From IMG/VR virus record IMGVR_UViG_2636415906_000005: 37,607 nucleotides of DNA; one strand, 5' to 3'. The position numbers and the translations under genes were made by a program. Shown piece by piece: positions 4,752 through 34,590 of this stretch. This stretch comes from a virus (lineage: Duplodnaviria; Heunggongvirae; Uroviricota; Caudoviricetes). The notes under the pieces were generated by a model. The model ran no database searches and was not told the DNA's origin. It was given only the letters and a program-made list of their open reading frames with translations. Positions within the stretch are counted from its first letter, which is position 1. Each line of letters opens with the position of its first letter.

Positions 4752-4809
4752 AAAAACGGCGGCAGAGCAGTCACGGAGTAAAACTGATACCGCCAAACGT
4801 CACCAGAAA
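4752..4809 (-). ncRNA. dicF: DicF small regulatory RNA (antisense regulator of ftsZ and other mRNAs) with intrinsic terminator
   Basis: Reverse complement of 4752-4809 reads TTTCTGGTGACGTTTGGCGGTATCAGTTTTACTCCGTGACTGCTCTGCCGCCGTTTTTA, matching the DicF sequence as I recall it, with a terminal GC hairpin plus U-run; immediately upstream of dicB as in Qin. Ends are approximate. Confidence 0.85.
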
Positions 4810-5068
4810 ATTGATAACAGAGGGCGTTGCAGCGGGGTTGTCACTTAAGCGTATGGTCAACCTGACAACTCGGTGTCCTCAACGGGGAAGGAATAACCCC
4901 GCCATACTTACCGCCGCGCCATTTCGCGGGTTGCCACAACCGGAAGCGCACGGTCGAATTAAATTTAACGACACCGTACAGTGAGACGAACTTCGCCGTG
5001 CGCTTTCGTGTTGTGTGCCTGCTTTTAACCACGTCAGGCGAGGTGGTATCCTTAAAATCACCACAGTT

Positions 5069-5644
5069 TTAAGGATTCATTAAGCAATGTCGCAACCACC
5101 AATAAATCCGCTTAAGAACATGAAAATTGATTACTGGTATAAAGCGCTTACAGTTGTTGGCGCTGCGTTGTTTGTCTTTAATGGAACGTCTTTTTTTGAC
5201 AGATATCCCGTTGTTCCATTGGGTTTTTTGTCCTCCGGCATCTTTTTTATTGGTTTGGGGGAGTGGATTAATCACCCTCTCAAAGTGAGATTTATTGGTC
5301 CTGGAGTTTGGACTCGTGGATATAATCGTTCTTCGTGCGCACTCGGTATCATCTTCGACATACTTGGTTGTTTCCTGATTGTTACAGGAGTCGTCAAGTT
5401 CTTCTGATGTAAAACCGCAAATGGGGCACGTAACGGGAATTTTGAAAAGCGTTTCTCCGGGTTCCAGAACAAAATTTTCTGCGGTCTGATTTTGCTTCTC
5501 ATATTTGTGCTCCGCGTCATTGTGAGAGCACATTCTTATTCTGAGTGCCTGTTTAAACTCACTGAAGCTGAGAGCTTCTTCGCCTTCGGCAAGGCCTTCG
5601 AAGTATTCTTCGTAAGCCTTTTCCATGATTGTGTCGAAATCCAT
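5069..5644 (-). CDS. Hypothetical early-left protein (ydfB/ydfC-region equivalent) with CPICGF zinc-ribbon-like motif; 3' extent uncertain
   Basis: ATG at 5644 overlaps the ydfA stop; the first ~90 aa (MDFDTIMEKAYEEYFEGLAEGEE ... CPICGF) look protein-like, while the C-terminal half is Lys/Asn-rich low complexity and overlaps a plus-strand membrane-like ORF (5087-5407). One of the two readings is probably spurious. Confidence 0.4.
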   Translation of the reverse strand: MDFDTIMEKAYEEYFEGLAEGEEALSFSEFKQALRIRMCSHNDAEHKYEKQNQTAENFVLEPGETLFKIPVTCPICGFTSEELDDSCNNQETTKYVEDDTECARRTIISTSPNSRTNKSHFERVINPLPQTNKKDAGGQKTQWNNGISVKKRRSIKDKQRSANNCKRFIPVINFHVLKRIYWWLRHCLMNP

Positions 5645-6706: not shown

Positions 6707-7211
6707 ACAGGCTCGTGAGGCTCTGGATGCCTGGATATGTCGACCAGGAATGACACAGGAGCAGGCGACGATATTAATCACTGAAGCATTCTGGGCTTTG
6801 AAAGAGCGCCCGAACATCGATGTTCAGCGTGTCACAGATGAAGGTGGCGCGGTTGATCAGCGAGCGCTTGGCGTTAATCGAGTGAAGATATTCGAACGCT
6901 GGAAGGCTATCGACACTAGGGATAAGCGTGAAAAGTTCACGGCGCTAGTGCCTGCAATTATGGAGGCTATCCGGATTAATGATTTCAGGTTGTATCGTGA
7001 AATTAGTGACGGAAAAAGCATCACGTACATGATCGCCGGGTTAAACAAAGAATATGGCGATGTGGTGGAGTCCGGACTGCTTTTTGCTGATCCTGCCGTA
7101 GTGGATCGTGAAACTGACGAACTTATAGAAAAAGCAATTGCTTTCAAACTTGCGTATCGACAGCAATACAAACAAAAAGCTGGATGGAATTATGAGCCTT
7201 CTTTTTGCTGA
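6690..7211 (+). CDS. Early-right protein, YdaT-like (CII-position regulator/toxin YdaT family)
   Basis: 173-aa ORF overlapping the dicC stop, in the position occupied by cII/ydaT in lambdoid prophages; the family assignment is a loose, memory-based similarity. Confidence 0.45.
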   Translation: MKITPEQAREALDAWICRPGMTQEQATILITEAFWALKERPNIDVQRVTDEGGAVDQRALGVNRVKIFERWKAIDTRDKREKFTALVPAIMEAIRINDFRLYREISDGKSITYMIAGLNKEYGDVVESGLLFADPAVVDRETDELIEKAIAFKLAYRQQYKQKAGWNYEPSFC

Positions 7212-8157
7212 ACGCCCACTGGTTATAAACACACAGCTTGCGATGAAGATTGGCTTAAATGAAGCCATTGTGTTGCAGCAGTTGCATTACTGGTTGAGAG
7301 ATACCAATTCCGGCATGGAATGTGATGGTGTTCGCTGGATTTACAACACAACGGAACAATGGCTGGAACAGTTCCCATTCTGGTCAGAGTCAACGTTAAA
7401 GCGCGCGTTTGCAAGTCTGAAAACGCTGGGGCTTTTGCGTTGTGAAAAGCTCAATAAATCAAAGCGCGATATGACCAATTTCTACACGATCAACTACGGG
7501 AGCGAGCTTTTAGATGGTGGCAAATTGAGCGAATCCATCGGTTTAAAATGCGCCGCTCCATCAGGTCAAAATGACACGATGGAAGAGGTCAAAATGAAAC
7601 GCTCCATTGGTTCAAAACGACCCAATGTCATCGGGTCAAAATGGCCTGATGATCTTACAGAGAATACAACAGAGATTACTACAGAGAATAAAAACACTTT
7701 TCGTCCGGAAGCTTCGCAACCGGACCCGCAGACCGCTGAACAGGATTTTTTAACCCGGAACCCCGACGCGGTTGTGTTTAGTGCGAAAAAACGCCAGTGG
7801 GGTAGCAGGGAGGATTTGGCGTGTGCGCAGTGGATTTGGGGGCGGATCGTGAACCTTTACGAACAGGCTGCCAGCGACGATGGAGAGATCATGCGACCAA
7901 AAGAGCCTAACTGGACAGCCTGGGCCAATGACGTGCGCACAATGCGGATGCTGGATGGCAGAAGCCACAGACAAATTTGCGAAATGTTTGGTCGGGTACA
8001 GCGAGATCAATTCTGGGTAAAAAACATCATGAGCCCGTCAAAACTCCGCGAAAAATGGGACGAACTGGTCATCCGCCTGGGACGTTCACCTGTACAGCGT
8101 TGTATGAATCATATTTCTGAACCGGATACAGAAATTCCGCCTGGTTTCAGAGGATAA
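7192..8157 (+). CDS. Putative phage replication initiation protein (O-like / replisome organizer)
   Basis: About 321-aa ORF from the ATG at 7192 (overlaps the upstream gene end); the N-terminal predicted winged-helix region and the position after the cro/cII-like genes suggest a replication initiator. No DnaC/P-like helicase loader follows. Confidence 0.5.
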   Translation: MSLLFAERPLVINTQLAMKIGLNEAIVLQQLHYWLRDTNSGMECDGVRWIYNTTEQWLEQFPFWSESTLKRAFASLKTLGLLRCEKLNKSKRDMTNFYTINYGSELLDGGKLSESIGLKCAAPSGQNDTMEEVKMKRSIGSKRPNVIGSKWPDDLTENTTEITTENKNTFRPEASQPDPQTAEQDFLTRNPDAVVFSAKKRQWGSREDLACAQWIWGRIVNLYEQAASDDGEIMRPKEPNWTAWANDVRTMRMLDGRSHRQICEMFGRVQRDQFWVKNIMSPSKLREKWDELVIRLGRSPVQRCMNHISEPDTEIPPGFRG

Positions 8158-10679: not shown

Positions 10680-10892
10680 GATTTCACATTGGCGAGGTAA
10701 CGGTAGTTAAGTAGAATGGCTGCGGGTGCTTGAGGCTATCTGCCTCGGGCATGAACACCAACGGCAGATAGAGAAAAGCCCCAGTTAACATTACGCGTCC
10801 TGCAAGACGCTTAACATTAATCTGAGGCCAATTTCATGCTAGACACATGTAGGTTAGCCTCTTACGTGCCGAAAGGCAAGGAGAAGCAGGCT
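10680..10892 (+). promoter_or_regulatory. hok mRNA leader with overlapping mok-like frame (from 10836) and expected Sok-antisense target region
   Basis: Upstream of hokD there is an overlapping ORF starting at 10836 (MLDTCRLASYVPKGKEKQA...), the mok-like arrangement, and a 9-bp inverted repeat CTATCTGCC...GGCAGATAG typical of structured hok leaders. The Sok promoter itself was not pinpointed. Confidence 0.4.
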
Positions 10893-11048
10893 ATGAAGCA
10901 GCAAAAGGCGATGTTAATCGCCCTGATCGTCATCTGTTTAACCGTCATAGTGACGGCACTGGTAACGAGGAAAGACCTCTGCGAGGTACGAATCCGAACC
11001 GGGCAGACGGAGGTCGCTGTCTTCACAGCTTACGAACCTGAGGAGTAA
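10893..11048 (+). CDS. hokD: Hok/Gef family type I toxin HokD (RelF)
   Basis: 51-aa product MKQQKAMLIALIVICLTVIVTALVTRKDLCEVRIRTGQTEVAVFTAYEPEE, which I recognise as HokD/RelF; followed by a fold-back repeat CGAGGGAgaaaTCCCTCG and an intrinsic terminator. Confidence 0.9.
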   Translation: MKQQKAMLIALIVICLTVIVTALVTRKDLCEVRIRTGQTEVAVFTAYEPEE

Positions 11049-12924: not shown

Positions 12925-13299
12925 ATGCTCATAGATTTGGTTTTACCTTACCCGCCGACGGTGAACACTTACTGGCGACGCCGTGGCAGCACATATTTTA
13001 TCTCGGAGGAGGGAAAGCGTTATCGCCGGGCTGTGGCGCTTATTGTTCGCCAGCAGCGGCTGAAATTAAGCCTGTCCGGAAGGCTGGCGATAAAGGTGAT
13101 TGCAGAGCCACCGGATAAGCGTCGTCGCGACCTGGACAATATCCTGAAAGCACCGCTGGATGCGCTGACGCATGCGGGAGTGTTAATGGACGATGAGCAG
13201 TTTGATGAAATCAATATCGTTCGTGGTCAGCCAGTATCTGGTGGACGTCTGGGGGTGAAGATTTACCCCATAATGCATGAAGAGCAGGTCAAAAAATGA
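12925..13299 (+). CDS. rusA: Crossover junction endodeoxyribonuclease RusA (Holliday junction resolvase)
   Basis: 124-aa product with the RusA-family blocks PPTVNTYWRRRG and DKRRRDLDNILKAPLDALTHAGVLMDD; AAGAGG ribosome-binding site 6 nt before the ATG; standard NinR-region position before Q. Confidence 0.85.
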   Translation: MLIDLVLPYPPTVNTYWRRRGSTYFISEEGKRYRRAVALIVRQQRLKLSLSGRLAIKVIAEPPDKRRRDLDNILKAPLDALTHAGVLMDDEQFDEINIVRGQPVSGGRLGVKIYPIMHEEQVKK

Positions 13300-14117
13300 A
13301 ACTGGAAGATTTACCGAAATACTACTCCCCAAAATCCCCTTGCCTGACCGATGCATCGGCCTCAACGTCAAAAGATGCGCTGAGTATCACTGATGTGATG
13401 GCCGCGCAGGGCATGACACAGAATCGGGCTGAGATGGGGTTTTCTGCGTTCCTGGGGAAAATGGGCATCAGTATGAATGACAGGGCGCGGGCAACAGAAT
13501 TACTGGCAGATTATGCACTCAGTCGGTGCGATCGTGTGGCGGCGTTGAGAAAACTTCCGGTAGAAATAAAACCGTTAGTGATGCGCATTATGGCTTCGTA
13601 CGCTTTTGAGGATTATGCCCGCAGCGCAGCGAGTAAAAAGCAGTGCCCTTGTTGCTATGGGGAAAAATTTATTGAAAGCGTAGTTTTTACAAACAAGGTC
13701 CAGTATCCGGATGGTAAGCCGCCGGTATGGGCAAAGTGTACGAAAGGTGTGTATCCGTCTTACTGGGAAGAATGGAAAAAAGTCAGGGAGGTGGTAAAAG
13801 TTGCCTGTCCGGAGTGTGGCGGAAAGGGTGAGGTTTCCACCGTCTGTAAGGATTGCCGTGGGCGTGGTGTCGCCATTCACCGTGAAGAGTCGGTAAAACG
13901 TGGTATGCCTGTTATCAGAGACTGCCAGCGTTGTGGTGGTCGTGGCTATGAAAGACTACCATCAACGGAGGCATTTAATGCTATATGCGAGGTGACAAAC
14001 CAGATAACACGCGCGTCATGGGAAAAAACAGTTAAGAAATTCTATGATGCGCTGGTGACCCGGTTTGATATTGAAGAAGCATGGGCTGAGCGGCAGTTAA
14101 AAAAGGTAACTAGGTAA
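13296..14117 (+). CDS. Putative late-gene antiterminator (Q-like) with DnaJ-type zinc-finger repeats
   Basis: 273-aa ORF whose start overlaps the rusA stop; contains repeated CxxCxGxG motifs (CPECGGKG, CKDCRGRG, CQRCGGRG); positioned immediately before a tR'-like terminator, tRNA genes and the lysis cassette. Confidence 0.6.
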   Translation: MKLEDLPKYYSPKSPCLTDASASTSKDALSITDVMAAQGMTQNRAEMGFSAFLGKMGISMNDRARATELLADYALSRCDRVAALRKLPVEIKPLVMRIMASYAFEDYARSAASKKQCPCCYGEKFIESVVFTNKVQYPDGKPPVWAKCTKGVYPSYWEEWKKVREVVKVACPECGGKGEVSTVCKDCRGRGVAIHREESVKRGMPVIRDCQRCGGRGYERLPSTEAFNAICEVTNQITRASWEKTVKKFYDALVTRFDIEEAWAERQLKKVTR

Positions 14118-14199
14118 CAAGGTTGATTTTTCCGGAATCTGTGGTAAATTCGTCATAACGATGGGCTTTTTATACCTGACGTTAGAAGAGTTTCTACAA

Positions 14200-14222
14200 C
14201 CCGCCACCGAGCGGGTTTTTTA
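14200..14222 (+). terminator. Rho-independent terminator downstream of Q (tR'-like)
   Basis: CCCGC-caccga-GCGGG hairpin followed by TTTTTTATT, about 85 bp after the Q-like stop. Confidence 0.55.
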
Positions 14223-14260
14223 TTGCGGAATTAATTACGGACCGTTATTATTCTGCTCCC

Positions 14261-14336
14261 GGTCCTTTAGCTCAGTGGTGAGAGCGAGCGACTCATAATC
14301 GCCAGGTCGCTGGTTCAAATCCAGCAAGGGCCACCA
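14261..14336 (+). tRNA. tRNA with anticodon CAU, most similar to tRNA-Ile2 (lysidine, ileX/ileZ-like); tRNA-Met not excluded
   Basis: 76-nt cloverleaf folded by hand: acceptor GGTCCTT/AAGGGCC, D-arm TAGCTCAGTGGTGAGAGC, anticodon loop CTCATAA, T-arm GCTGG-TTCAAAT-CCAGC, 3' CCA; resembles my memory of E. coli tRNA-Ile2. Confidence 0.85.
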
Positions 14337-14398
14337 TCACAAACCGCCATGAGCTTATCAGGAAGAGCAGACGACACGATAACAGGGTTGTTGGTGGC

Positions 14399-14412
14399 GG
14401 GGGGGGGGGGGG
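14399..14412. repeat. Homopolymeric G tract (about 14 G) between the two tRNA genes
   Basis: GGCGGGGGGGGGGGGGGCGGG read directly from 14397-14416. Confidence 0.9.
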
Positions 14413-14446
14413 CGGGTCCCCGATGGCGGTCCATTATCGGTATTCA

Positions 14447-14523
14447 GCGTTGTTAGCTCAGCCGGACAGAGCAATTGCCTTCTAAGCAATCGGTCACTGG
14501 TTCGAATCCAGTACAGCGCGCCA
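14447..14523 (+). tRNA. tRNA-Arg (anticodon UCU)
   Basis: 77-nt cloverleaf: acceptor GCGTTGT/ACAGCGC, anticodon stem ATTGC/GCAAT with loop CTTCTAA, T-arm ACTGG-TTCGAAT-CCAGT, 3' GCCA. Confidence 0.85.
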
Positions 14524-14633
14524 TATTCATTCTTCCAGATTCCTTCCGGCAGAGCCTTATACTGGAATATACCTGGCTCAGGATATTGTTGAAAATATTA
14601 TATGTTTGTCAAAAATAAAAGTTCTGTTAAGTA

Positions 14634-14987
14634 TTGATTGAGTGTTTGTTATACGGTCTAATGGTTTTTTCAGCATTAAATATTTATCATTCATATGGTG
14701 TGGGTAGAGTGAATATTGATGAGGCGTCGGGGTGTTTCATCCTTAGGCAGCGTATTGATATAGTCAATGCAGCACGAGCAAAGGCCTTCAGCCGTTTGAC
14801 AGTTTTGTTCTGTGCTCCTGATCGTCTTTCGGGAAGAGACGTTATTATTCTGAATAGTGATGCTATACAGAGGGTTTGCGATGAGTTCATGGTTGCTAAT
14901 TCAGAATTATTTGCTCTTGTTCAGGAGTACAACAGAATAGCCAGGACCTGTGGTATGGATGAACTTCGGATTACTCATCTGGGGTAG
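14634..14987 (+). CDS. Hypothetical protein downstream of the tRNA genes (start uncertain)
   Basis: 117-aa track ORF with no strong ribosome-binding site identified; sits in the cargo position between Q/tRNAs and the lysis genes. Confidence 0.35.
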   Translation: MIECLLYGLMVFSALNIYHSYGVGRVNIDEASGCFILRQRIDIVNAARAKAFSRLTVLFCAPDRLSGRDVIILNSDAIQRVCDEFMVANSELFALVQEYNRIARTCGMDELRITHLG

Positions 14988-15520
14988 ATACATATCTGGA
15001 TTATCACCTGTTACGGTAAAAAGTGATTGCTTACTGTTTTTGTGAATGGCATTGCAGCAGCCGGATAATGTCAGTGCTGGCTGACGGTGTGCTGGTGGCG
15101 GGTGTGGTGGTTGTTGCTTTCCCGTTGCTGAAAAAGAAAACGCCAGACTGTTAGCCGGGTATCAGTTAGCGGGAGAAATTTTTAAATACTTCACAATTCA
15201 GGCGGTTGACTGTTCTCTGGTTTGCGGGGAGTTTGTTAAAAGAAACTGGCATGGTGAATCCCCCTGTGCGGAGGGGCAATCAGCGAGTAGGTATATGGGA
15301 TAATCGCGGATTCAGGTGCTGGTACTGAATTCACCGGGAGGCACCCGGCACCATGCACTTCAATAGATTCTCTCCACATTATGGATATTCTTTCAGAATA
15401 TCCCACGCAGACTTTGTGTAAATGTTAACAAATGTGCGTTTTATTTGATCTGATTCGCTGTTTGAGCGTCCAAAACAACGGTATATATAATCCTTTACTA
15501 TATGACATATGTGAGGAAAA

Positions 15521-15949
15521 ATGGGTTTTCGTAGCGCATCAATTCTTACGTTGATTATTAGTGGGATTATTATCGGGTGCACTGATGCTGTATCGACAAA
15601 TTATCATGACCGTACATCATATTACTCCGATAAAGCAATAGAGACACAGTATGTGAGTTTATCTGAACGTACTTCTGATGTTAGTGAGGATATCCGTCTG
15701 TATGCCCATCAAATCAAGAGCGCCATCGAAAAACAGTTCGGGGATGCGAGTAAGTATTCAGGAAAAGAGTGTACACTGAGAATGCATATGGCCCCGAATG
15801 GCCTTCTACTGGAGGTTAAAAGAGAAAGTGGAGACCTCGATTTATGTCGTGAAGCGATGAATGCGATAAAGAATGCTGATATACCTGCCCCCCCTTCGCC
15901 GGAAGTATATAAAGTATTTCAAAATGGGGTGCTGGATTTTAAACCCTGA
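15521..15949 (+). CDS. Lipoprotein with TolA C-terminal (domain III)-like fold
   Basis: Signal peptide with lipobox-like IIGC; the C-terminal 85 aa (YAHQIKSAIEKQFGDASKYSGKECTLRMHMAPNGLLLEVKRESGDLDLCREAMNAIKNADIPAPPSPEVYKVFQNGVLDFKP) aligns closely with my recollection of E. coli TolA domain III; GAGGA ribosome-binding site before the ATG. Confidence 0.75.
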   Translation: MGFRSASILTLIISGIIIGCTDAVSTNYHDRTSYYSDKAIETQYVSLSERTSDVSEDIRLYAHQIKSAIEKQFGDASKYSGKECTLRMHMAPNGLLLEVKRESGDLDLCREAMNAIKNADIPAPPSPEVYKVFQNGVLDFKP

Positions 15950-16099
15950 TATTTATTGTTTTGTAATAAACGGTTTCGGCTTAGGTTTGTTCTGACACAA
16001 CTACGGCACTGAGCTAAATCTAGCGGATAGTCAGCTCTGAGCCAGTGGCGGACGTAACAACTACTATTGCTGAGATTTTAATGGATTGAGGAGCAAGAA

Positions 16100-16495
16100 G
16101 TGGGATTAAAGAAAATCGTTATGTTGACTTTTTGGGTCAGTTTTGTTGCGGGATGCACACCTTTACACCCTTCAGATTGCCACAAAACTACTGCTACAGG
16201 TAGTTGCAGTTCAGGACGCTGGGATGATCAGGATGAATGGGGGGCGCAAGCGCGGGGAATCAGAGCTGCAATTAATGCCAAACTTGATGAGCCGCATAAC
16301 TGGAAAGGGAAAAAATGCAGGTTGCATATGGAATTCTCTCAGGATGGCACGGCGTTAAAAATATCTACCAGTAACGGTGATAAAGCCTATTGCGAAGCGA
16401 TAAAGTCCGCAGCTCATAAAGCCAAATTTCCGGCCTTCAACAATCCGGAAGTCTACAGAGATTTTCAGAAATCTGGCTTTGACATGCGAGGTTAG
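16100..16495 (+). CDS. Paralogous lipoprotein with divergent TolA domain III-like region
   Basis: GTG start after GAGGAG; signal peptide with lipobox VAGC; conserved skeleton GKKCRLHMEF..DG.ALKI....GD.AYCEAI.SAA.KAKFPAF..PEVYRDFQ shared with the upstream paralog. Confidence 0.7.
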   Translation: MGLKKIVMLTFWVSFVAGCTPLHPSDCHKTTATGSCSSGRWDDQDEWGAQARGIRAAINAKLDEPHNWKGKKCRLHMEFSQDGTALKISTSNGDKAYCEAIKSAAHKAKFPAFNNPEVYRDFQKSGFDMRG

Positions 16496-16620
16496 CTCTT
16501 CAATTACTATATCTCATTCATAGCAAACTGACAGATTTGATGATGTTCTATATACGAAACCTGTGATGTCAAGTCTGAGCTAATACAAATAAACATAATA
16601 TCAGAGAAATACATTTTATT

Positions 16621-16643
16621 AGCTCGCTACGGCGAGCTTTTTA
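16621..16643 (+). terminator. Rho-independent terminator between the lipoprotein genes and the lysis cassette
   Basis: AGCTCGC-tacg-GCGAGCT hairpin followed by TTTTT. Confidence 0.6.
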
Positions 16644-16746
16644 TATTGCATCGTCTCCAGCATATATATCAATTAAGGCTCTGATTGATGTGTCTGGAAG
16701 CCTACACATAATAACTATGCCATCCGTTCCGTGCGGAGGTGAGGCT

Positions 16747-16962
16747 ATGAAATCCATGGACAAAATTTCAACAGGCATTGCCTACGGCACCTCCGCAGGC
16801 AGTGCTGGCTACTGGTTTTTACAGCTGCTCGATAAAGTCACGCCCTCACAGTGGGCAGCAATAGGTGTGCTGGGTAGCCTGGTATTTGGCCTGCTGACGT
16901 ACCTGACAAACCTTTATTTCAAGATTAAAGAAGACAAGCGTAAGGCTGCACGGGGAGAGTAA
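16747..16962 (+). CDS. Class II holin (phage 21 S-like pinholin) with dual-start motif
   Basis: 71-aa product [71 protein letters not shown], recognised as S21-type pinholin; Met1/Met4 dual start; GGAGGTGAGG ribosome-binding site. Confidence 0.85.
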
Positions 16963-16966
16963 TTCA

Positions 16967-17311
16967 ATGACTCAAAAATATGAACTGATTGTGAAAGGGA
17001 TCCGCAATTTTGAGAATAAAGTTACGGTAACTTTAGCGTTACGGGACAAAGAACGCTTTGACGGTGAAATTTTTGACCTGGACATCTCGCTGGACCGTGT
17101 TGAAGGTGCCGCGCTGGAGTTTTATGAGGCAGCAGCCAGAAGGAGCATCAGACAGGTCTTCCTGGATGTTGCTGCCGGGTTATGTGAAGGGGATGAGCTG
17201 TCGCCGGAAAAGCGCCCCATAATTTTAGAGGCGCAGAATGTGTGGATAACCTACAAAGGAAAGCTACCGGGAAGAATTACTGGTTCTCTGAAGACTCCGC
17301 CGAAATGGTAA
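16967..17311 (+). CDS. Hypothetical 114-aa protein inserted between holin and endolysin
   Basis: ATG 5 nt after the holin stop with GGGGAGAG upstream; protein-like composition; no family recognised. Confidence 0.5.
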   Translation: MTQKYELIVKGIRNFENKVTVTLALRDKERFDGEIFDLDISLDRVEGAALEFYEAAARRSIRQVFLDVAAGLCEGDELSPEKRPIILEAQNVWITYKGKLPGRITGSLKTPPKW

Positions 17312-17549
17312 TTTCACCAGCATATTTTTCTTCCAGTAATACCGCCAGCCACTTGAAAGAATTTTGTTGTTGCTGGGACCATTTGGGGTTGAGTGATTCA
17401 AGCTGGAGCGATGCCAGTGTTGGTTGCATTTGTTCCTTGGGAATTGAGAATGCCAGATATGAAAATGCGACAGTAAGGGCATTTACATCATCCCGAAGCT
17501 TGGAAATGCAGTCGAGCAACTCCTGTAGAGAAATGGTGCTATTGTCCAT
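17277..17549 (-). CDS. Hypothetical 90-aa protein, convergent with and 3'-overlapping the preceding gene
   Basis: Minus-strand ATG at 17549 preceded by GAGAGGA about 7 nt upstream; overlaps the 16967-17311 gene by about 35 bp at the 3' ends; a competing plus-strand ORF (17242-17574) exists. Confidence 0.4.
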   Translation of the reverse strand: MDNSTISLQELLDCISKLRDDVNALTVAFSYLAFSIPKEQMQPTLASLQLESLNPKWSQQQQNSFKWLAVLLEEKYAGEITISAESSENQ

Positions 17550-17654
17550 AAACAATCCTCTCTATTGTATTTAACTATTCCTTGCCTGATTCAACAGGCC
17601 GGGACAGATAAACATATCCAGGGTTCAGAAACCGATAAATCCTGATAAATATCC

Positions 17655-18197
17655 ATGAACGTAAAAATCAGATACGGCCTGTCGGCTGCCGTTCTGGCAC
17701 TGATTGCCGTCGGTGCGCCTGCGCCTGATATTCTCGACCAGTTTCTGAATGAAAAAGAAGGTAACCACACAACGGCATACCGCGATGGTTCCGGCATCTG
17801 GACCATCTGTCGGGGTGCCACGGTGGTGGATGGAAAACCCGTTTTTCCCGGTATGAAACTGTCGAAGGAAAAATGCGACCAGGTTAACGCCATTGAACGG
17901 GATAAGGCGCTGGCATGGGTGGAGCGCAATATTAAAGTGCCACTGACCGAACCACAGAAAGCGGGTATAGCGTCATTTTGTCCCTATAACATTGGCCCCG
18001 GTAAGTGTTTCCCGTCGACGTTTTATAAGCGGCTGAATGCCGATGATCGTAAGGGGGCATGCGAGGCGATTCGCTGGTGGATAAAAGATGGTGGGCGTGA
18101 TTGCCGCCTGACAAAAGGGCAGAAGAATGGCTGTTATGGGCAGGTCGAGCGGCGCGATCAGGAAAGCGCACTGGCGTGCTGGGGGCTGGAGCAATGA
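17655..18197 (+). CDS. SAR endolysin (T4-lysozyme-like glycoside hydrolase with N-terminal signal-anchor-release segment)
   Basis: N-terminal hydrophobic segment LSAAVLALIAVGAPAP followed by the catalytic E-x8-D-x5-T triad (EGNHTTAYRDGSGIWT); pairs with the pinholin. Confidence 0.85.
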   Translation: MNVKIRYGLSAAVLALIAVGAPAPDILDQFLNEKEGNHTTAYRDGSGIWTICRGATVVDGKPVFPGMKLSKEKCDQVNAIERDKALAWVERNIKVPLTEPQKAGIASFCPYNIGPGKCFPSTFYKRLNADDRKGACEAIRWWIKDGGRDCRLTKGQKNGCYGQVERRDQESALACWGLEQ

Positions 18198-18730
18198 AAA
18201 TTAATCCGGATCTTATAGGCGTTGTCGTTATTGCTGGCCTTTCGGTCGCTCTCGTCAAGAGTTGCTCTCACGCCAGTAATCTTCAGAGCGATAACGACGT
18301 TCTGCGAAGTGACAACTCTATGCTGGGGCAGGTAATCGCCACCCAGGCATTCAACTTCAATCGATTCAATCAGGTTGCAGAACATGCCAACAGTCTTAAC
18401 TCCCTGATCGACACCAGCACCGAAAAAACCGTAATCGAATACCGGGAGATTCTCCGCCGTGAAAAAACCTGTGATCTGCCTGTTCCTGCTGATATCGCTG
18501 GTGGGTTGCTCGAATACACGTACCGTTTACGTGCCAGCGCCATGCACACCGATACCGGCAGACCTAATGAAGCCTATGATCGTACCGCTACCACCAGCTC
18601 AATGACCTACTGCCAAGCTGTCTTGTGGATTAAGCCGCTACTGGCGTTGATAGAAAAAGGAAATAATAATTTTTCGAGTATTCGTGAAATTGATGAGTTG
18701 CGTTACAGACCATCTGAGCATGGCCAGTAA
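18194..18730 (+). CDS. Inner-membrane spanin Rz (i-spanin)
   Basis: ATG overlaps the endolysin stop (ATGA); N-terminal transmembrane segment VVVIAGLSVALV followed by a predicted coiled-coil region; standard position. Confidence 0.75.
   Translation: MKINPDLIGVVVIAGLSVALVKSCSHASNLQSDNDVLRSDNSMLGQVIATQAFNFNRFNQVAEHANSLNSLIDTSTEKTVIEYREILRREKTCDLPVPADIAGGLLEYTYRLRASAMHTDTGRPNEAYDRTATTSSMTYCQAVLWIKPLLALIEKGNNNFSSIREIDELRYRPSEHGQ
18459..18605 (+). CDS. Outer-membrane lipoprotein spanin Rz1 (o-spanin), embedded in Rz in the +1 frame
   Basis: 48-aa hand translation from GTG: MKKPVICLFLLISLVGCSNTRTVYVPAPCTPIPADLMKPMIVPLPPAQ, with lipobox LVGC and a Pro-rich mature part; absent from the ORF track because it is under 60 aa. 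Confidence 0.6.
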   Translation: MKKPVICLFLLISLVGCSNTRTVYVPAPCTPIPADLMKPMIVPLPPAQ

Positions 18731-18898: not shown

Positions 18899-19591
18899 TC
18901 AAATCTTATCTAACTCATTATAGGCTTCGATAATAAAAATTCTGATTTTAATAAGGCATGATTCAATGAAAGGAATTACTTCATGGTCATTCCCATGGAA
19001 TCTTATTTTTTTCTCTTCGGTAATGACTATGTTTAAAGGTACACCATTACCACTTCTTTGTAATTTCCCATTTTCGAAAGTAAAGTCTTCTAATTTTTTG
19101 CCATTGATGTGGTTGTTTTTAAAGAGAATTTTTGCTGAGCTTCCTGCTGTGATTAAACCAAAACCATCTACGCTCACACTTAGGTCTTTAACAGAACTCT
19201 CTTCTCTTAAGGGGATTGGTTGTCTGTGCTTTACTTCATTAGTGAGATTACACATCATTTCCAACCAAGATTCGCCAGTGTGATAATCCTGTATAGAAGT
19301 AAAAATTTTATATAATGGAGAAGATGATGGTGGGTTTATTTTTAGCGTCTTTGAGAAAAATTTATCAATAAACTCTTTTTTTCCGTAAGGGAAATATATT
19401 TTGGGGCGCTCATCATTACTGCGTGGAGAAATATATTTATCATAGGTATCATTAGCGAGATACTCTAAGGAACTTCGTAAGTTTTCCAAAATAGCTTTGA
19501 CTTTTACAGGCTTGATATGCTGTGTCTGTCTCATTATGTCAAGACTTTCTTCAACTTCTTGCAATAAGTCCAACGAGCCTTCTCTAGACAT
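18899..19591 (-). CDS. Hypothetical 230-aa protein, AT-rich minus-strand cargo gene in the bor-equivalent position (candidate accessory/defense gene)
   Basis: Long ORF on the strand opposite all neighbouring late genes, with AAGGAG about 9 nt upstream of the ATG on the minus strand and visibly low GC; no recognised family. Confidence 0.65.
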   Translation of the reverse strand: MSREGSLDLLQEVEESLDIMRQTQHIKPVKVKAILENLRSSLEYLANDTYDKYISPRSNDERPKIYFPYGKKEFIDKFFSKTLKINPPSSSPLYKIFTSIQDYHTGESWLEMMCNLTNEVKHRQPIPLREESSVKDLSVSVDGFGLITAGSSAKILFKNNHINGKKLEDFTFENGKLQRSGNGVPLNIVITEEKKIRFHGNDHEVIPFIESCLIKIRIFIIEAYNELDKI

Positions 19592-22968: not shown

Positions 22969-24476
22969 TGGCAATTCTTGATGATGTGATTGGCGTTTTT
23001 TCACCAGGATGGAAAGCGGCAAGGCTGCGTTCCCGTGCGGTGATCCAGGCTTATGAGGCCGTAAAAACGACGCGGACACACAAAGCCCGGCGGGAAAACC
23101 GAACTGCCGACCAGTTAAGCCAGTACGGGGCCGTGTCGTTACGTGAGCAGGCCCGTTACCTTGATAACAACCACGATCTGGTCATTGGTGTATTTGACAA
23201 GCTGGAAGAACGGGTGGTGGGGAAAAACGGGATTATTGTCGAGCCACATCCGGTATTACGCAATGGGGCCATTGCCCGTGACCTGGCTGCGGAGATTCGC
23301 ACCCGATGGAGTGAATGGTCTGTCAGCCCGGAAGTCACCGGGCAGTTTACCCGTCCGATGCTGGAACGTCTGATGCTGCGTACCTGGCTGCGCGATGGTG
23401 AGGTGTTTGTCCAGATGGTTTCCGGGCGCATAAACAGCCTGACGCCTTCTGCCGGTGTTCATTTCTGGCTGGAGGCACTCGAGCCGGACTTTATTCCCAT
23501 GACCAGTGATGAGAGCAACAGGCTGAATCAGGGCGTGTTTGTTGATGACTGGGGGCGTCCCGAAAAATATCTGGTGTATAAAAGTCGTCCCGTATCCGGA
23601 CGGCAGATGGAAACCAAAGAAGTGGATGCAGAGCGAATGCTGCATCTTAAATTTGTTCGCCGTCTGCACCAGATGCGCGGGACGTCTTTGTTGTCCGGTG
23701 TGCTGATCCGCCTCAGTGCCCTGAAAGAGTATGAAGATTCTGAGCTGACTGCAGCAAGGATCGCCGCTGCTCTGGGGATGTACATCCGGAAAGGCGACGG
23801 GCAGAGCTATGAACCGGATGGTAATGGCAGCAAGGATAAGGAACGCGAGCTTACCATTCAGCCAGGCATTATTTACGACGATCTGAAACCCGGCGAAGAA
23901 ATCGGAATGGTGAAGTCGGATCGTCCCAATCCTAACCTTGAAACTTTTCGTAATGGTCAGTTGCGTGCCGTGGCGGCGGGCAGTCGTCTGAGTTTTTCCA
24001 GTACGGCACGCAACTATAACGGCACTTACAGCGCCCAGCGTCAGGAGCTGGTTGAATCCACTGATGGCTACCTGATCCTGCAGGACTGGTTTATTGGTGC
24101 CGTCACCCGCCCGATGTATCGTGCCTGGCTGAAACAGGCTGTGGCATCCGGTGTTATCAGGCTACCCCGCGATCTTGACCGTTCTTCACTGTATACCGCG
24201 GTGTATTCCGGACCGGTGATGCCGTGGATTGACCCTGTTAAGGAGGCTGAGGCCTGGAAAATTCAGATTCGTGGTGGAGCAGCGACAGAATCAGACTGGG
24301 TACGTGCAGGTGGTCGTAATCCGGATGATGTCAAACGTCGGCGCAAGGCCGAAATTGATGAAAACCGCACGCTGGATCTGGTATTTGATACCGATCCGGC
24401 CAGTGATAAAGGAGGCAGCAGTGCCGCAACGAAACGACAGGAGCCGCAGCACACCGACGACCAGTCCGAAGAATAA
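22968..24476 (+). CDS. Portal protein (lambda gpB-like)
   Basis: About 502-aa product from MAILDDVIGVFSPGWKAARLRSRAVIQAYEAVKTTRTHKARRENRTADQL..., recognised as lambda-like portal; ATG overlaps the W stop. Confidence 0.9.
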   Translation: MAILDDVIGVFSPGWKAARLRSRAVIQAYEAVKTTRTHKARRENRTADQLSQYGAVSLREQARYLDNNHDLVIGVFDKLEERVVGKNGIIVEPHPVLRNGAIARDLAAEIRTRWSEWSVSPEVTGQFTRPMLERLMLRTWLRDGEVFVQMVSGRINSLTPSAGVHFWLEALEPDFIPMTSDESNRLNQGVFVDDWGRPEKYLVYKSRPVSGRQMETKEVDAERMLHLKFVRRLHQMRGTSLLSGVLIRLSALKEYEDSELTAARIAAALGMYIRKGDGQSYEPDGNGSKDKERELTIQPGIIYDDLKPGEEIGMVKSDRPNPNLETFRNGQLRAVAAGSRLSFSSTARNYNGTYSAQRQELVESTDGYLILQDWFIGAVTRPMYRAWLKQAVASGVIRLPRDLDRSSLYTAVYSGPVMPWIDPVKEAEAWKIQIRGGAATESDWVRAGGRNPDDVKRRRKAEIDENRTLDLVFDTDPASDKGGSSAATKRQEPQHTDDQSEE

Positions 24477-24489
24477 TTCCTGGTTCAGG

Positions 24490-25668
24490 ATGCAGGCTGG
24501 TCACCAGAGTGACGCGGATATTTATATTTATGACGAGATTGGTTTCTGGGGTGTTACAGCGAAGCAGTTTATCAGTGATCTGAATGCACTGGGCGATATC
24601 ACCCACATTAATCTCCATATCAATTCACCGGGTGGCGATGTCTTTGAAGGCATCGCCATTTTTAATGCACTGAAAACACATGGTGCGTCCATTACCGTTT
24701 ATGTCGACGGTGTGGCGGCGTCAATGGCGTCGGTCATTGCGATGGTGGGAAACCCGGTCATTATGCCGGAAAACACCTTCATGATGATTCATAAACCATT
24801 TGGCTTTACGGGCGGTGATGCGGAGGACATGCGCACCTATGCCGACCTGCTCGATAAGGTTGAGGCGGTTCTGTTACCCGCTTATGCACAGAAAACCGGG
24901 AAAACCACCGATGAAATTGCTGCCATGCTGGCGGATGAGACCTGGATGTCCGGTGCCGAATGTCTGGCACATGGATTTGCTGATCAGGTGACGCCAGCCG
25001 TTAAGGCAATGGCATGTATTCAGTCAAAACGTACAGAGGAATTTAAAAAGATGCCGGAATCCATTCGAAACATGATTACTCCGCCACGCAACAGTGCTCC
25101 ACGCGTACAGGATGATGAACCTGCAGCCTCCCGGACGCCAGTGCAGGCAGCAGCACCCGTGGTGGATGAAAACAGTATCCGTGCGCAGGTACTGGCAGAG
25201 CAAAAAGCGCGTGTAAACGGTATTAATGATCTGTTTGCCATGTTTGGCGGGCGTTATCAGACGCTGCAGGCTCAGTGTCTTGCCGATCCTGAATGTTCGC
25301 TGGAGCAGGCCCGCGAAAAGCTGTTGAACGAGATGGGGCGCGAGTCCACGCCATCCAATAAAAATACACCGGCTCATATTTATGCCGGTAATCTGGAGGC
25401 CACAGGGCTGTATCAGGTGCCGTTGTCAGCGGCGCAGCCGGGCGATGTGCTGCTGTGCTGTTTTGGTTCATCGGTGCCGAATCATGCCGCCATTTACTGT
25501 GGCGACGGCGGGCTGCTGCACCATATTCCTGAACAACTGAGCAAACGAGAGAGGTATACCGACAAATGGCAGCGACGCACACACTCCCTCTGGCGTCACC
25601 GGGCATGGCGCGCATCTGCCTTTACGGGGATTTACAACGATTTGGCCGCCGCATCGATCTGCGTGTGA
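24490..25668 (+). pseudogene. Chimeric ORF: head maturation protease (gpC-like, ClpP/S49 fold) N-terminal part fused in frame to a tail assembly protein K-like (NlpC/P60-type) C-terminal fragment; scar of a head/tail gene deletion
   Basis: The N-terminal 200 aa carry ClpP/S49-like motifs (INSPGGDVFEGIAIFNALK ... VAASMASVIAMVG ... MIHKP). The C-terminal 90 aa (QPGDVLLCCFGSSVPNHAAIYCGDGGLLHHIPEQ...) look like the NlpC/P60-type end of lambda K. It is followed directly by gpI and gpJ, with no scaffold, capsid, tail tube or tape-measure genes in between. Confidence 0.6.
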
Positions 25669-26207
25669 AAACGGGGGCCGAAGCCATCCGGGCGCTGGCC
25701 ATGCAGATCCCGGCGTTTCGTCAGAAGCTGAGCGACGGCTGGTATCAGGTACGCATTGCCGGGCGTGATACAGGTGAAACGGAATTATCAGCCCGTCTTA
25801 ATGAACCGCTGGCAAATGGTGCTGTGATCCATATCGTGCCGCGTCTGGCGGGAGCCAAAAGTGGCGGTGTGTTTCAGGCTGTGCTGGGGGCGGCTGTTAT
25901 GGCGGTTGCTATATGGATGCCGGGGGTAGGAATTATGGCGAGTAATCTGCTGTTTTCTCTCGGTGCCAGTATGACGCTTGGCGGTGTTGCACAGATGCTG
26001 GCCCCTAAACCCAAAACCCCCCGCACACAGACAACGGATAACGGCAAACAGAACACCTATTTTTCTTCACTGGATAACATGGTTGCCCAGGGCAATGTTC
26101 TGCCTGTTCTGTACGGTGAAATGCGCGTGGGGTCACGCGTGGTTTCTCAGGAGATCAGCACGGCAGACGAAGGGGATGGTGGTCAGGTTGTGGTGATTGG
26201 TCGCTGA
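25566..26207 (+). CDS. Tail assembly protein I (lambda gpI-like)
   Basis: 213-aa product with the C-terminal block TTDNGKQNTYFSSLDNMVAQGNVLPVLYGEMRVGSRVVSQEISTADEGDGGQVVVIGR, recognised as gpI; precedes J. Confidence 0.85.
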   Translation: MAATHTLPLASPGMARICLYGDLQRFGRRIDLRVKTGAEAIRALAMQIPAFRQKLSDGWYQVRIAGRDTGETELSARLNEPLANGAVIHIVPRLAGAKSGGVFQAVLGAAVMAVAIWMPGVGIMASNLLFSLGASMTLGGVAQMLAPKPKTPRTQTTDNGKQNTYFSSLDNMVAQGNVLPVLYGEMRVGSRVVSQEISTADEGDGGQVVVIGR

Positions 26208-34009: not shown

Positions 34010-34590
34010 TGGCATTCAGAATGAGTGAACAACCACGGACCATAAAAATTTATAATCTGCTGGTCGGAACTAATGAATTTATTGGTGAAGGTGACGCATA
34101 TATTCCGCCTCATACAGGTCTGCCAGCAAACAGTACCGATATTGCACCACCAGATATTCCTGCTGGCTTTGTGGCTGTTTTCAACAGTGATGAGGCATCG
34201 TGGCATCTCGTTGAAGACCATCGGGGTAAAACGGTTTATGACGTGGCTTCCGGCGACGCGTTATTTATTTCTGAACTCGGCTCATTACCGGAAAATGTCA
34301 CCTGGTTATCCCCGGAAGGGGAGTTTCAGAAGTGGAACGGCACAGCCTGGGTGAAAGATGCAGAAGCAGAAAAACTATTCCGGATCCGGGAGGCGGAAGA
34401 AACAAAAAACAGCCTGATGCAGGCAGCGAATGAGCATATTGCGCCACTTCAGGATGCTGTAGATCTGGAAATCGCAACGGAGGAAGAAAACTCGTTGCTG
34501 GAAGCCTGGAAAAAGTATCGGGTGTTGCTGAACCGTGTTAATACAACAACTGCACCGGATATTGAATGGCCAGTAGCACCTATAGGGTAA
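34009..34590 (+). CDS. tfa: Tail fiber assembly protein (Tfa)
   Basis: 193-aa product; start overlaps the stf stop; C-terminal motif [31 protein letters not shown] is characteristic of Tfa chaperones. Confidence 0.85.

Follow-up and report, generated by a model that had tools for sequence, protein, structure and literature searches.

Two TolA domain III lipoproteins lie between Q and the holin gene

The DNA analysed here, called the window below, is a stretch of 37,607 nucleotides from a virus of the class Caudoviricetes (IMG/VR record IMGVR_UViG_2636415906_000005), a prophage in which two short open reading frames, ORF1 and ORF2, lie between the late antiterminator gene Q and the holin gene. 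Each encodes a signal peptide with a lipobox, a short linker and a complete domain III of the host protein TolA (TolA-III). An earlier note on this DNA had described two lipobox lipoproteins at 15521-15949 and 16100-16495, in the cargo slot between Q and the lysis genes and with a terminator of their own; the coordinates and signal peptides were borne out, as were the gene order (Q, further on ORF1 and ORF2, the terminator, then the holin gene) and the terminator itself, which has a stem at 16621-16638 and a T-run. The pair and its signals are as follows.

15462-15491, + strand: sigma-70 promoter-like site, TTGAGC-18-TATAAT, 30 nucleotides 5' of ORF1, matching the consensus at 10 of 12 positions and joint best in 14000-17000
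15521-15949, + strand: ORF1, 142 amino acids; signal peptide and lipobox, variable linker (residues 21-54), TolA-III domain (residues 55-142, nucleotides 15683-15946)
16088-16093, + strand: Shine-Dalgarno sequence GAGGAG of ORF2, six bases 5' of the GTG start at 16100, as read from the sequence
16100-16495, + strand: ORF2, 131 amino acids; signal peptide and lipobox, Cys/Trp-rich linker (residues 20-48, nucleotides 16157-16243), TolA-III domain (about residues 45-131)
16621-16646, + strand: intrinsic terminator of the ORF1-ORF2 unit; 7-bp stem with 5 GC pairs and a 4-nucleotide loop (16621-16638), then the T-run TTTTTATATT

The N-terminus of ORF1 reads MGFRSASILTLIISGIIIGC and then T, with the lipobox IIGC at residues 17-20, Cys20 as its cysteine and Thr at position +2; that of ORF2 reads MGLKKIVMLTFWVSFVAGC and then T, with the lipobox VAGC at residues 16-19, Cys19 and again Thr at +2. 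Both have a positively charged n-region, a hydrophobic h-region and a lipobox of the form [LVI][ASTVI][GAS]C, and the Gly-Cys of the lipobox was invariant in both families in a 13-sequence alignment. Under the Lol sorting rule, lipoproteins with a +2 residue other than Asp go to the outer membrane, and with Thr in that position both proteins are predicted to be outer-membrane lipoproteins. In RefSeq ORF2 starts at the ATG at 16121, so that its signal peptide loses the Lys-Lys n-region; of the two starts the GTG at 16100 is the better, because plasmid homologues of ORF2 retain the N-terminal MGVKKIV.

The earlier note had likened the C-terminal domains to TolA-III and proposed that this be judged by alignment against the Pfam family TolA_C. 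That alignment was significant for both proteins (PF06519; ORF1 82.2 bits, E 3.3e-23; ORF2 54.6 bits, E 1.3e-14; gathering cut-off 25), and solved chains of E. coli TolA-III in the Protein Data Bank (PDB) were matched by ORF1 with E 6e-28 and by ORF2 with E 5e-9. Aligned without gaps to residues 334-421 of E. coli TolA, ORF1 was 59% identical and had the same LDFKP C-terminus; ORF2 was 31% identical to E. coli TolA-III. The consensus string that the earlier note had offered for the pair follows the identity pattern of ORF1 with TolA, and does not fit ORF2, with its 31% identity. The AlphaFold model of ORF2 had a predicted local distance difference test score (pLDDT) of about 90 across residues 45-131 and superposed on 3QDP with a root-mean-square deviation (rmsd) of 1.0 Å and a template modelling (TM) score of 0.93 in Foldseek. 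The best Foldseek matches to this model were 3QDP, 3QDR, 2X9A and 1TOL (rmsd 1.0-1.5 Å, TM up to 0.93), those after 3QDP including TolA complexes with colicin A, If1 g3p and M13 g3p. GC content differed weakly between the genes and their surroundings (ORF1 0.42, ORF2 0.46, window 0.48).

The proteins are not TolA itself and have separate histories

ORF1 and ORF2 are not bona fide TolA. The inner-membrane anchor of TolA (domain I, the TolQ-TolR coupling part) is absent, the N-terminus of both proteins being a signal peptide with a predicted cleavage at the lipobox, and the long helical domain II is absent too, the total lengths being 142 and 131 amino acids with linkers of about 25-35 residues. 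In the TolA models, which have 362 and 387 positions, the matches were limited to the last 79-94, or about a quarter of the profile. With the TolA equivalog model NF007065 (cut-off 213) ORF1 scored 107.5 and ORF2 53.7 bits, both below; with TIGR02794 (cut-off 59.45) ORF1 passed at 74.4 on its C-terminal domain alone and ORF2 stayed below at 47.2. That pass through the C-terminal domain probably explains why ORF1 is named 'tolA' in RefSeq. Both genes lie outside the tolQRA-tolB-pal cluster, in the prophage between Q and the holin gene.

The two proteins were only 27% identical to each other. Among full-length TolA representatives E. coli TolA was closest to ORF1 at 59%, with the others at 53% or less, and ORF2 was about equally far (about 31%) from all of them. 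A recent tandem duplication was rejected on the 27% identity and on the occurrence of ORF1 in E. coli and Shigella only, as against that of ORF2 across Enterobacterales; it is also contradicted by the homology of ORF2 with other replicons, which is limited to the ribosome-binding site and the ORF. The description of the genes as a paralogous tandem pair, made in the earlier note, is therefore not upheld: they have separate histories, and prophages, plasmids and chromosomes exchange ORF2 as a cassette.

The two genes travel as a unit among prophages

Conservation of the unit was counted at 80 IMG/VR viral-contig loci. ORF1 and ORF2 stood together 5' of the holin gene, at equal spacing, in 79 of the 80, and the DNA from about 15400 to past 16660 was conserved as one block, at 99% or more, in 79 of the 80. 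The exact promoter string was present at 74 loci and the exact terminator string, which in the window lies about 100 nucleotides 5' of the annotated holin start (16747), at 73. At 45 of the 80, homology to the window began only at about 15229, where an STnc100-family small RNA (sRNA) element was about 80% identical; L026, the sole locus checked among these 45, had a different Q gene on the 5' side, no transfer RNA (tRNA) genes and an STnc100 element at 3125-3311. The STnc100 element is the left-most DNA common to both prophage backgrounds, and the left flank of the unit is of at least two kinds, that of L026 having a different Q gene.

A diverged variant of ORF1 was found alone, without ORF2, on the chromosome of E. 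coli STEC1589 (4933-5361; protein beginning MYCRAVPVLVLILASLTTGC, C-terminus LDFKL). It lies in a Stx-phage-like prophage, directly 3' of tRNA-Ile and tRNA-Arg and 5' of a nanS-p-type (SASA-family) esterase gene, which we take to be the position of the stx genes, and it was 81% identical in nucleotides to the window ORF1, with a ratio of nonsynonymous to synonymous substitution rates (dN/dS) of 0.34. A single genome among 50,697 isolated phages (mEp460_ev081), in a set that includes many lambdoid and Stx phages, carried ORF1 or ORF2. We propose that a putative promoter, the two genes and the terminator form a self-contained cargo unit, or 'moron'.

Lipid-anchored TolA domain III is widespread on plasmids and chromosomes

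The ORF1 type was confined to prophages of E. coli and Shigella and was present in 888 of 5426 complete E. coli genomes, almost always on the chromosome. ORF2 was present in 1269 of the same genomes, at 825 chromosomal and 525 plasmid places, and both genes were annotated as intact coding sequences in all rows listed in these surveys. Proteins of the ORF2 type with 79-90% identity occurred in Citrobacter, Enterobacter, Klebsiella, Raoultella and Serratia. In Enterobacter, Citrobacter and one genome labelled 'Serratia' the gene was solitary amid ordinary chromosomal genes, standing in many Enterobacter assemblies between gpx and ridA. A phage-specific family, should the earlier note be taken to imply one, was rejected on account of these stand-alone chromosomal genes and of at least 600 plasmids with a full-length copy (80-90% protein identity).

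Homologues were detected by tblastn on 1297 plasmids, and a full-length copy of the ORF2 type (88-89% protein identity) on about 600 plasmids of E. coli and Shigella. On IncI1/B/O plasmids the gene lies directly 3' of the relaxase genes nikA-nikB (pHUSEC41-1, 6965-7396), and on pO157-type plasmids of O157:H7 (locus L016, 6965-7396) between the hok/psiAB leading region and toxB; no source gave a functional name for the gene on either of these plasmids. Klebsiella IncFIB plasmids carry a 35% relative adjoining the gene for a thioredoxin-fold protein, and on a K. oxytoca plasmid the gene for a TolA-III lipoprotein adjoins one for an 'Exc2 family lipoprotein'. On CloDF13-like bacteriocin plasmids of Klebsiella (NZ_CP028539.3, 969-1702; NZ_CP070146.1, 3780-4703) the stop of the TolA-III lipoprotein gene overlaps the start of a gene for a secreted protein that consists of a TonB_C domain only, and this pair fills the variable slot held in CloDF13 by proteins K and L. 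A relationship of the pair to proteins K and L was considered and rejected, as tblastn found no similarity between them.

All the short homologues examined from plasmids and chromosomes had a lipobox and a +2 residue other than Asp (A, S, K or N). DNA similarity between the window ORF2 and its plasmid and chromosomal copies was confined to 16063-16498, that is the ribosome-binding site and the ORF, starting at 16063-16070. A profile search of 1.84 billion protein cluster representatives returned 613 clusters; among the best 150 of these, 80 representatives were 100-170 amino acids long, and at least 58 of the 80 had a lipobox-like motif. With dozens of clusters at 50% identity, lipid-anchored TolA-III appears to be a large and old family rather than a peculiarity of the window prophage. 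In a neighbour-joining tree of about 134 domains, made from a short domain without support analysis, the ORF2 type formed a deep clade of short proteins only, which suggests that the lipoprotein forms are old and diverse; given the short domain, no firm phylogeny is drawn from it.

Purifying selection on ORF2 and a conserved TolB-binding surface

ORF2 is under strong purifying selection, with dN/dS of 0.07-0.11 against plasmid and chromosomal copies at synonymous divergence (dS) of up to 1.1. The ORF1 linker is variable, with dN/dS of 0.36.

The ligands of TolA-III use two faces of the domain. The g3p-N1 domain, colicin N and the TolB N-terminus each add a β-strand to β3 (A415-K420), and the TolA substitutions D418P and K420P abolish all three interactions (PMC4339652, PMC3365938, PMC7391070), backbone hydrogen bonds at D418 and K420 being required by g3p-N1, ColN-T and TolB (PMC4339652; PMC7391070). 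Colicin A binds the opposite face, at β2 (L375-P380), and makes cation-π contacts with K368, K379 and K396 (PMC4339652, PMC3365938, PMC7391070). We aligned ten lipoprotein homologues from three divergent families, 30-59% identical to TolA. In these β3 took the form L/F/I-D-F/M-K/R, with D418 invariant and positions 417, 419 and 420 conservative, and the disulfide pair C363/C388 was invariant in all ten. Most of the 80 short cluster representatives likewise had the C-terminal motif ...LDF(K/R)(P/L). At the colicin A site, the positions of the three lysines read H/K/K in ORF1, E/S/H in ORF2 and S/I/T-like in the Klebsiella plasmid forms. Because β3 is kept in every family and the colicin A lysines are not, the surface common to all families is the TolB/g3p/colicin N site.

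The linker of the ORF2 family (PLHPSxCHKTTAxGSCSSGRWDDQDEWG; in the window TPLHPSDCHKTTATGSCSSGRWDDQDEWG) persists in relatives of about 50% identity. Its mean column identity (residues 20-48) was above that of the domain, at 0.953 versus 0.914. AlphaFold modelled it as disordered, and it holds two conserved Cys, two Trp and an acidic stretch; it may be a second binding epitope. A colicin-like TolB box was considered here and rejected, since the likeness to GASDGSGWSSENNPW is only loose, the Trp spacing is off by one and the DG(S/T)GWSSE core is lost; we keep it as a lead.

The prophage setting

The window, a lambdoid prophage, was 99.97% identical to a prophage at the ydfJ (Qin) locus of E. 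coli ACN002, which in the matched region runs from the integrase through dicB/DicF, Q, the lysis genes, terminase and portal to J, lom and tfaQ. In the window at about 24420-25670, as annotated in the near-identical ACN002 record, a truncated head maturation protease gene adjoins an NlpC/P60 gene fragment; the prophage is therefore probably defective, a large deletion of head and tail genes being implied, with the TolA-like cargo still intact. The features that flank the ORF1-ORF2 unit are listed below.

13296-14117, + strand: late antiterminator Q (Pfam PF03589 Antiterm, E 2e-54; RefSeq 'antitermination protein'), the left edge of the cargo region
14198-14227, + strand: tR'-like intrinsic terminator just 3' of Q; 7-bp stem with 5 GC pairs, then TTTTATTGCG
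14261-14336, + strand: tRNA with CAT anticodon (RefSeq: tRNA-Ile), by ARAGORN, Rfam tRNA and RefSeq
14447-14523, + strand: tRNA-Arg(TCT), by ARAGORN, Rfam tRNA and RefSeq
14634-14987, + strand: putative 117-amino-acid ORF between the tRNAs and DUF3927, absent from the RefSeq annotation
15023-15154, + strand: DUF3927 small hydrophobic protein, 43 amino acids (Pfam PF13064, E 1.7e-27)
15220-15410, + strand: STnc100-family sRNA (Rfam RF02076, 114 bits against a gathering score of 47), directly 5' of the TolA-like unit
16747-18730, + strand: lysis cassette with P21-type holin (PF04971), YdfR/DUF1327 (PF07041), lysozyme and an Rz-like ORF with a nested lipoprotein ORF; RefSeq

The terminator at 14198-14227 would, from its position, be tR'. 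The 117-amino-acid ORF had no Pfam or PADLOC match. Relatives of the DUF3927 protein in phages are annotated 'TciB-like', the label tciB being used in phage JLK-2012. A 109-nucleotide part of the STnc100 element (15249-15357) was a 100% match to DNA just 3' of stx1B in Shigella phage 75/02 Stx. Identity of the element with sRNA-17 of mEp460-like prophages was not supported, the paper on sRNA-17 reporting no Rfam homologue for it. Between the Rz-like gene and terminase a 230-amino-acid ORF (18899-19591, - strand) lies in a low-GC patch (0.38) and may be further cargo; it had no Pfam or PADLOC match. Elsewhere in the prophage, Rfam matched DicF (4757-4808, - strand), the sok antitoxin RNA adjoining hokD (10724-10898, + strand) and IS009 (34352-34550, + strand).

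The lipoproteins may act as decoys for Tol-dependent invaders

We give an even chance to the reading that ORF1 and ORF2 are decoys, tethered to the outer membrane, which make their carrier tolerant to Tol-dependent colicins and to filamentous phages. The steps inferred, from expression and localisation through binding to phenotype, are these. The unit would be transcribed in the lysogen, the terminator shielding the holin gene from that transcription, and the products would be exported and lipidated at Cys20 (ORF1) and Cys19 (ORF2). The short tether would suspend TolA-III just beneath the outer membrane, where an incoming colicin translocation domain, g3p-N1 or the TolB N-terminus would reach it before any other TolA-like surface. 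There it would serve as an unenergised decoy for ligands that add a β-strand to β3, namely g3p N1 (Ff, If1), TolA-binding colicins such as N, and the TolB N-terminus; the nuclease colicins E2-E9 and cloacin-type bacteriocins would be covered through their dependence on the TolB-TolA contact. As the lipoprotein would be uncoupled from TolQR and the proton-motive force, a captured ligand could not be drawn into the cell; import would come to a halt, leaving the lysogen tolerant. Two copies would broaden the range, ORF1 as a close imitation of E. coli TolA and ORF2 as a pan-enterobacterial cassette with the extra conserved linker epitope.

Exclusion of Ff phages, protection from colicins and modulation of Tol-Pal, the functions that the earlier note had put forward, are made plausible by the conserved β3, by purifying selection on ORF2 and by the reappearance of this architecture on conjugative plasmids and on bacteriocin plasmids, in one cloacin plasmid with translational coupling to a secreted TonB_C domain. 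The mobile elements that have recruited it are unrelated to one another, among them IncI1/B/O, pO157, Klebsiella IncFIB and CloDF13-like plasmids. I-pili are the receptors for phage If1, and the If1 g3p-TolA-III complex has been solved (PDB 2X9A), being among the structure matches. A protective role is preferred over one in lysis because conjugative plasmids whose pili attract TolA-dependent phages recruit the gene, because bacteriocin plasmids recruit a TolA-III lipoprotein together with a TonB_C domain, and because the terminator insulates the holin gene.

Several points weigh against the decoy reading. The genes lie inside the Q-dependent late transcript, so that they may be made mainly in lytic growth, and the promoter is a candidate recognised by its consensus match alone. 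At only 31% identity to TolA-III, ORF2 may or may not bind E. coli-specific ligands. The colicin A site is partly kept in ORF1 (two of three lysines) and lost in ORF2; binding of colicin A, one of the colicins that the earlier note had named, is not supported for ORF2, where all three lysines are gone. Capture of the TolB N-terminus should cost envelope integrity. The ORF2 type in Enterobacter and Citrobacter is an ordinary chromosomal gene, which fits housekeeping as well as protection. The rarity of the genes among isolated phages counts against a decoy too, and PADLOC gave no match for ORF1 or ORF2 (nor for DUF3927 or the 117-amino-acid ORF).

Alternative explanations

The first and main alternative, which we consider rather unlikely, is that the proteins deliberately modulate the Tol-Pal system. 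The tethered TolA-III would compete with TolA for the TolB N-terminus and partly switch off Pal mobilisation, with a looser outer membrane, more vesicles or Rcs/capsule induction as the outcome and colicin tolerance as a side effect; the phage would gain help in late lysis and release, or an altered cell surface of its lysogen. The TolB-binding β3 is indeed the best conserved surface, and the genes stand in the late operon directly 5' of the holin and endolysin genes. When mutations abolish contact between TolA and TolB, cells show the full tol phenotype, leakage included (PMC4339652), and a review suggests that vesicle production can be regulated through TolB interactions (PMC7391070). The affinity of TolA for TolB is low, however, at about 40 µM (PMC4339652), so that strong interference would need high expression. 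The same genes also occur on plasmids and chromosomes without a lysis function, the unit is set apart from the lysis genes by a terminator, and Rz/Rz1-like spanin ORFs are already present in the prophage. This alternative does not account for the bacteriocin plasmid on which the gene is paired with a TonB_C decoy; that pairing points to a block of import and not to tuning of Tol-Pal.

It is also unlikely, in our estimate, that the TolA-III scaffold is re-used for another partner that has nothing to do with colicins or filamentous phages, such as a host envelope protein or a component of another mobile element, for example, in entry exclusion, incoming conjugative machinery. Here TolA-III would serve β-augmentation in general, and specificity could reside in the conserved ORF2 linker; its conservation above that of the domain, in a segment modelled as disordered, is typical of a binding epitope. 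The 'Exc2 family lipoprotein' neighbour on the K. oxytoca plasmid, the place of the gene after the relaxase gene on IncI-complex plasmids and its presence as a conserved chromosomal gene in Enterobacter would suit such a role. No candidate partner was identified, though, and the surface kept across families is the known TolB/g3p/colicin N site. The variable linker of ORF1, together with its closeness to E. coli TolA (59% versus 53% or less), points instead to mimicry of the host.

That the genes are non-functional debris, phage-acquired tolA fragments that have been mis-annotated, is very improbable and effectively refuted by the selection and conservation data: RefSeq does call ORF1 simply 'tolA' and the window prophage is probably defective, but both genes have gained signal peptides of the lipoprotein kind, the disulfide pair is conserved and so is β3, ORF2 has a low dN/dS at substantial dS, the coding sequences are intact in all listed rows, and the lipoboxes, dN/dS and size of the family, with its dozens of clusters at 50% identity, exclude tolA pseudogene fragments.

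Beyond the decoy reading for this prophage lies a wider proposal, which we put forward tentatively and think somewhat less probable than not, that outer-membrane-anchored copies of the TolA tip and secreted copies of the TonB tip make up a widespread mobile layer of innate protection in Enterobacterales, intercepting Tol- and Ton-dependent bacteriocins and pilus-specific filamentous phages once these are past the outer membrane. ORF2 would within this layer be a two-part mimic, its linker possibly engaging TolB as the TolB boxes of colicins do.

Relation to known systems

In fold, Pfam family, disulfide pair and β3 the two proteins are like E. coli TolA-III (residues about 334-421; PDB 1TOL, 3QDP/3QDR, 2X9A, 1S62). 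They differ from E. coli TolA in having no domains I and II, hence no coupling to TolQR and the proton-motive force, in their predicted lipid anchorage at the opposite membrane and in being encoded on mobile elements. An engineered counterpart is a precedent for the decoy reading: Levengood-Freyermuth, Click and Webster reportedly found in 1993 that wild-type cells became tolerant to colicins E1, E2, E3 and A when free TolA-III was exported to their periplasm. There was said to be no tolerance to the TonB-dependent colicin D, and the cells were reportedly leaky, which counts against that reading and in favour of Tol-Pal modulation. That fragment was reportedly likewise periplasmic and uncoupled from TolQR, in cells retaining TolA, and was dominant negative. 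It was an overproduced soluble construct, whereas ORF1 and ORF2 are natural, diverged and under purifying selection, are predicted to be lipid-anchored and are presumably expressed at low levels.

Among mobile-element proteins, T5 Llp, lambdoid Cor and F-plasmid TraT are small lipoproteins, sorted to the outer membrane, that protect their carrier from later invaders. Cor and TraT are taken to act at outer-membrane receptors, and T5 Llp is described as plugging the outer-membrane receptor FhuA. ORF1 and ORF2 are unrelated to these in sequence, their Pfam search being significant for TolA/TonB families only. Unlike them, they copy the periplasmic import hub and would act one step later, on any receptor class that feeds Tol. 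The TonB_C-only protein of the Klebsiella plasmid (NZ_CP028539.3, 1337-1702), which lies outside the window and whose gene overlaps the stop of the TolA-III lipoprotein gene, follows the same logic of an exported stand-alone tip; it has a signal of the signal-peptidase-I type and would hence be soluble, whereas ORF1 and ORF2 are predicted to be lipidated. Immunity through filamentous-phage pIII also blocks Tol-dependent entry by titrating one partner of the g3p-TolA contact, periplasmic g3p-N1 sequestering TolA and so giving resistance to colicin A and phage (PMC10424213). It is the mirror image of the decoy proposed here: in the one a phage protein saturates the host receptor, in the other the invader would be saturated by a receptor copy.

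The similarity to TolA is in itself not new, naming by homology being present already in RefSeq and other sources; PHROGs places both proteins in phrog_5772, 'unknown function'. A search of the full-text literature found no functional study of these proteins and only mentions at the level of annotation, namely a Cronobacter prophage 'TolA' and a Klebsiella cloacin plasmid.

Significance

TolA-III is the shared entry point of group A colicins, cloacin-type bacteriocins and filamentous phages, and agents that enter through it serve as laboratory tools and are under development as narrow-spectrum antibacterials. If ORF1 and ORF2 are decoys, then 16%-23% of complete E. coli genomes hold a transferable tolerance factor, including those with pO157 (O157:H7) and common IncI-complex resistance plasmids; the factor was absent from the resistance and defence catalogues searched. 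It would represent a new principle of exclusion for mobile elements, in which the periplasmic import hub is copied and no surface receptor is blocked, and it would offer natural, selected dominant-negative variants with which to separate TolB binding from toxin binding. Were the wider proposal of a mobile protection layer also true, it would account for some of the natural colicin tolerance that is common in wild E. coli, and for the presence of the gene on conjugative plasmids, which expose their hosts to pilus phages.

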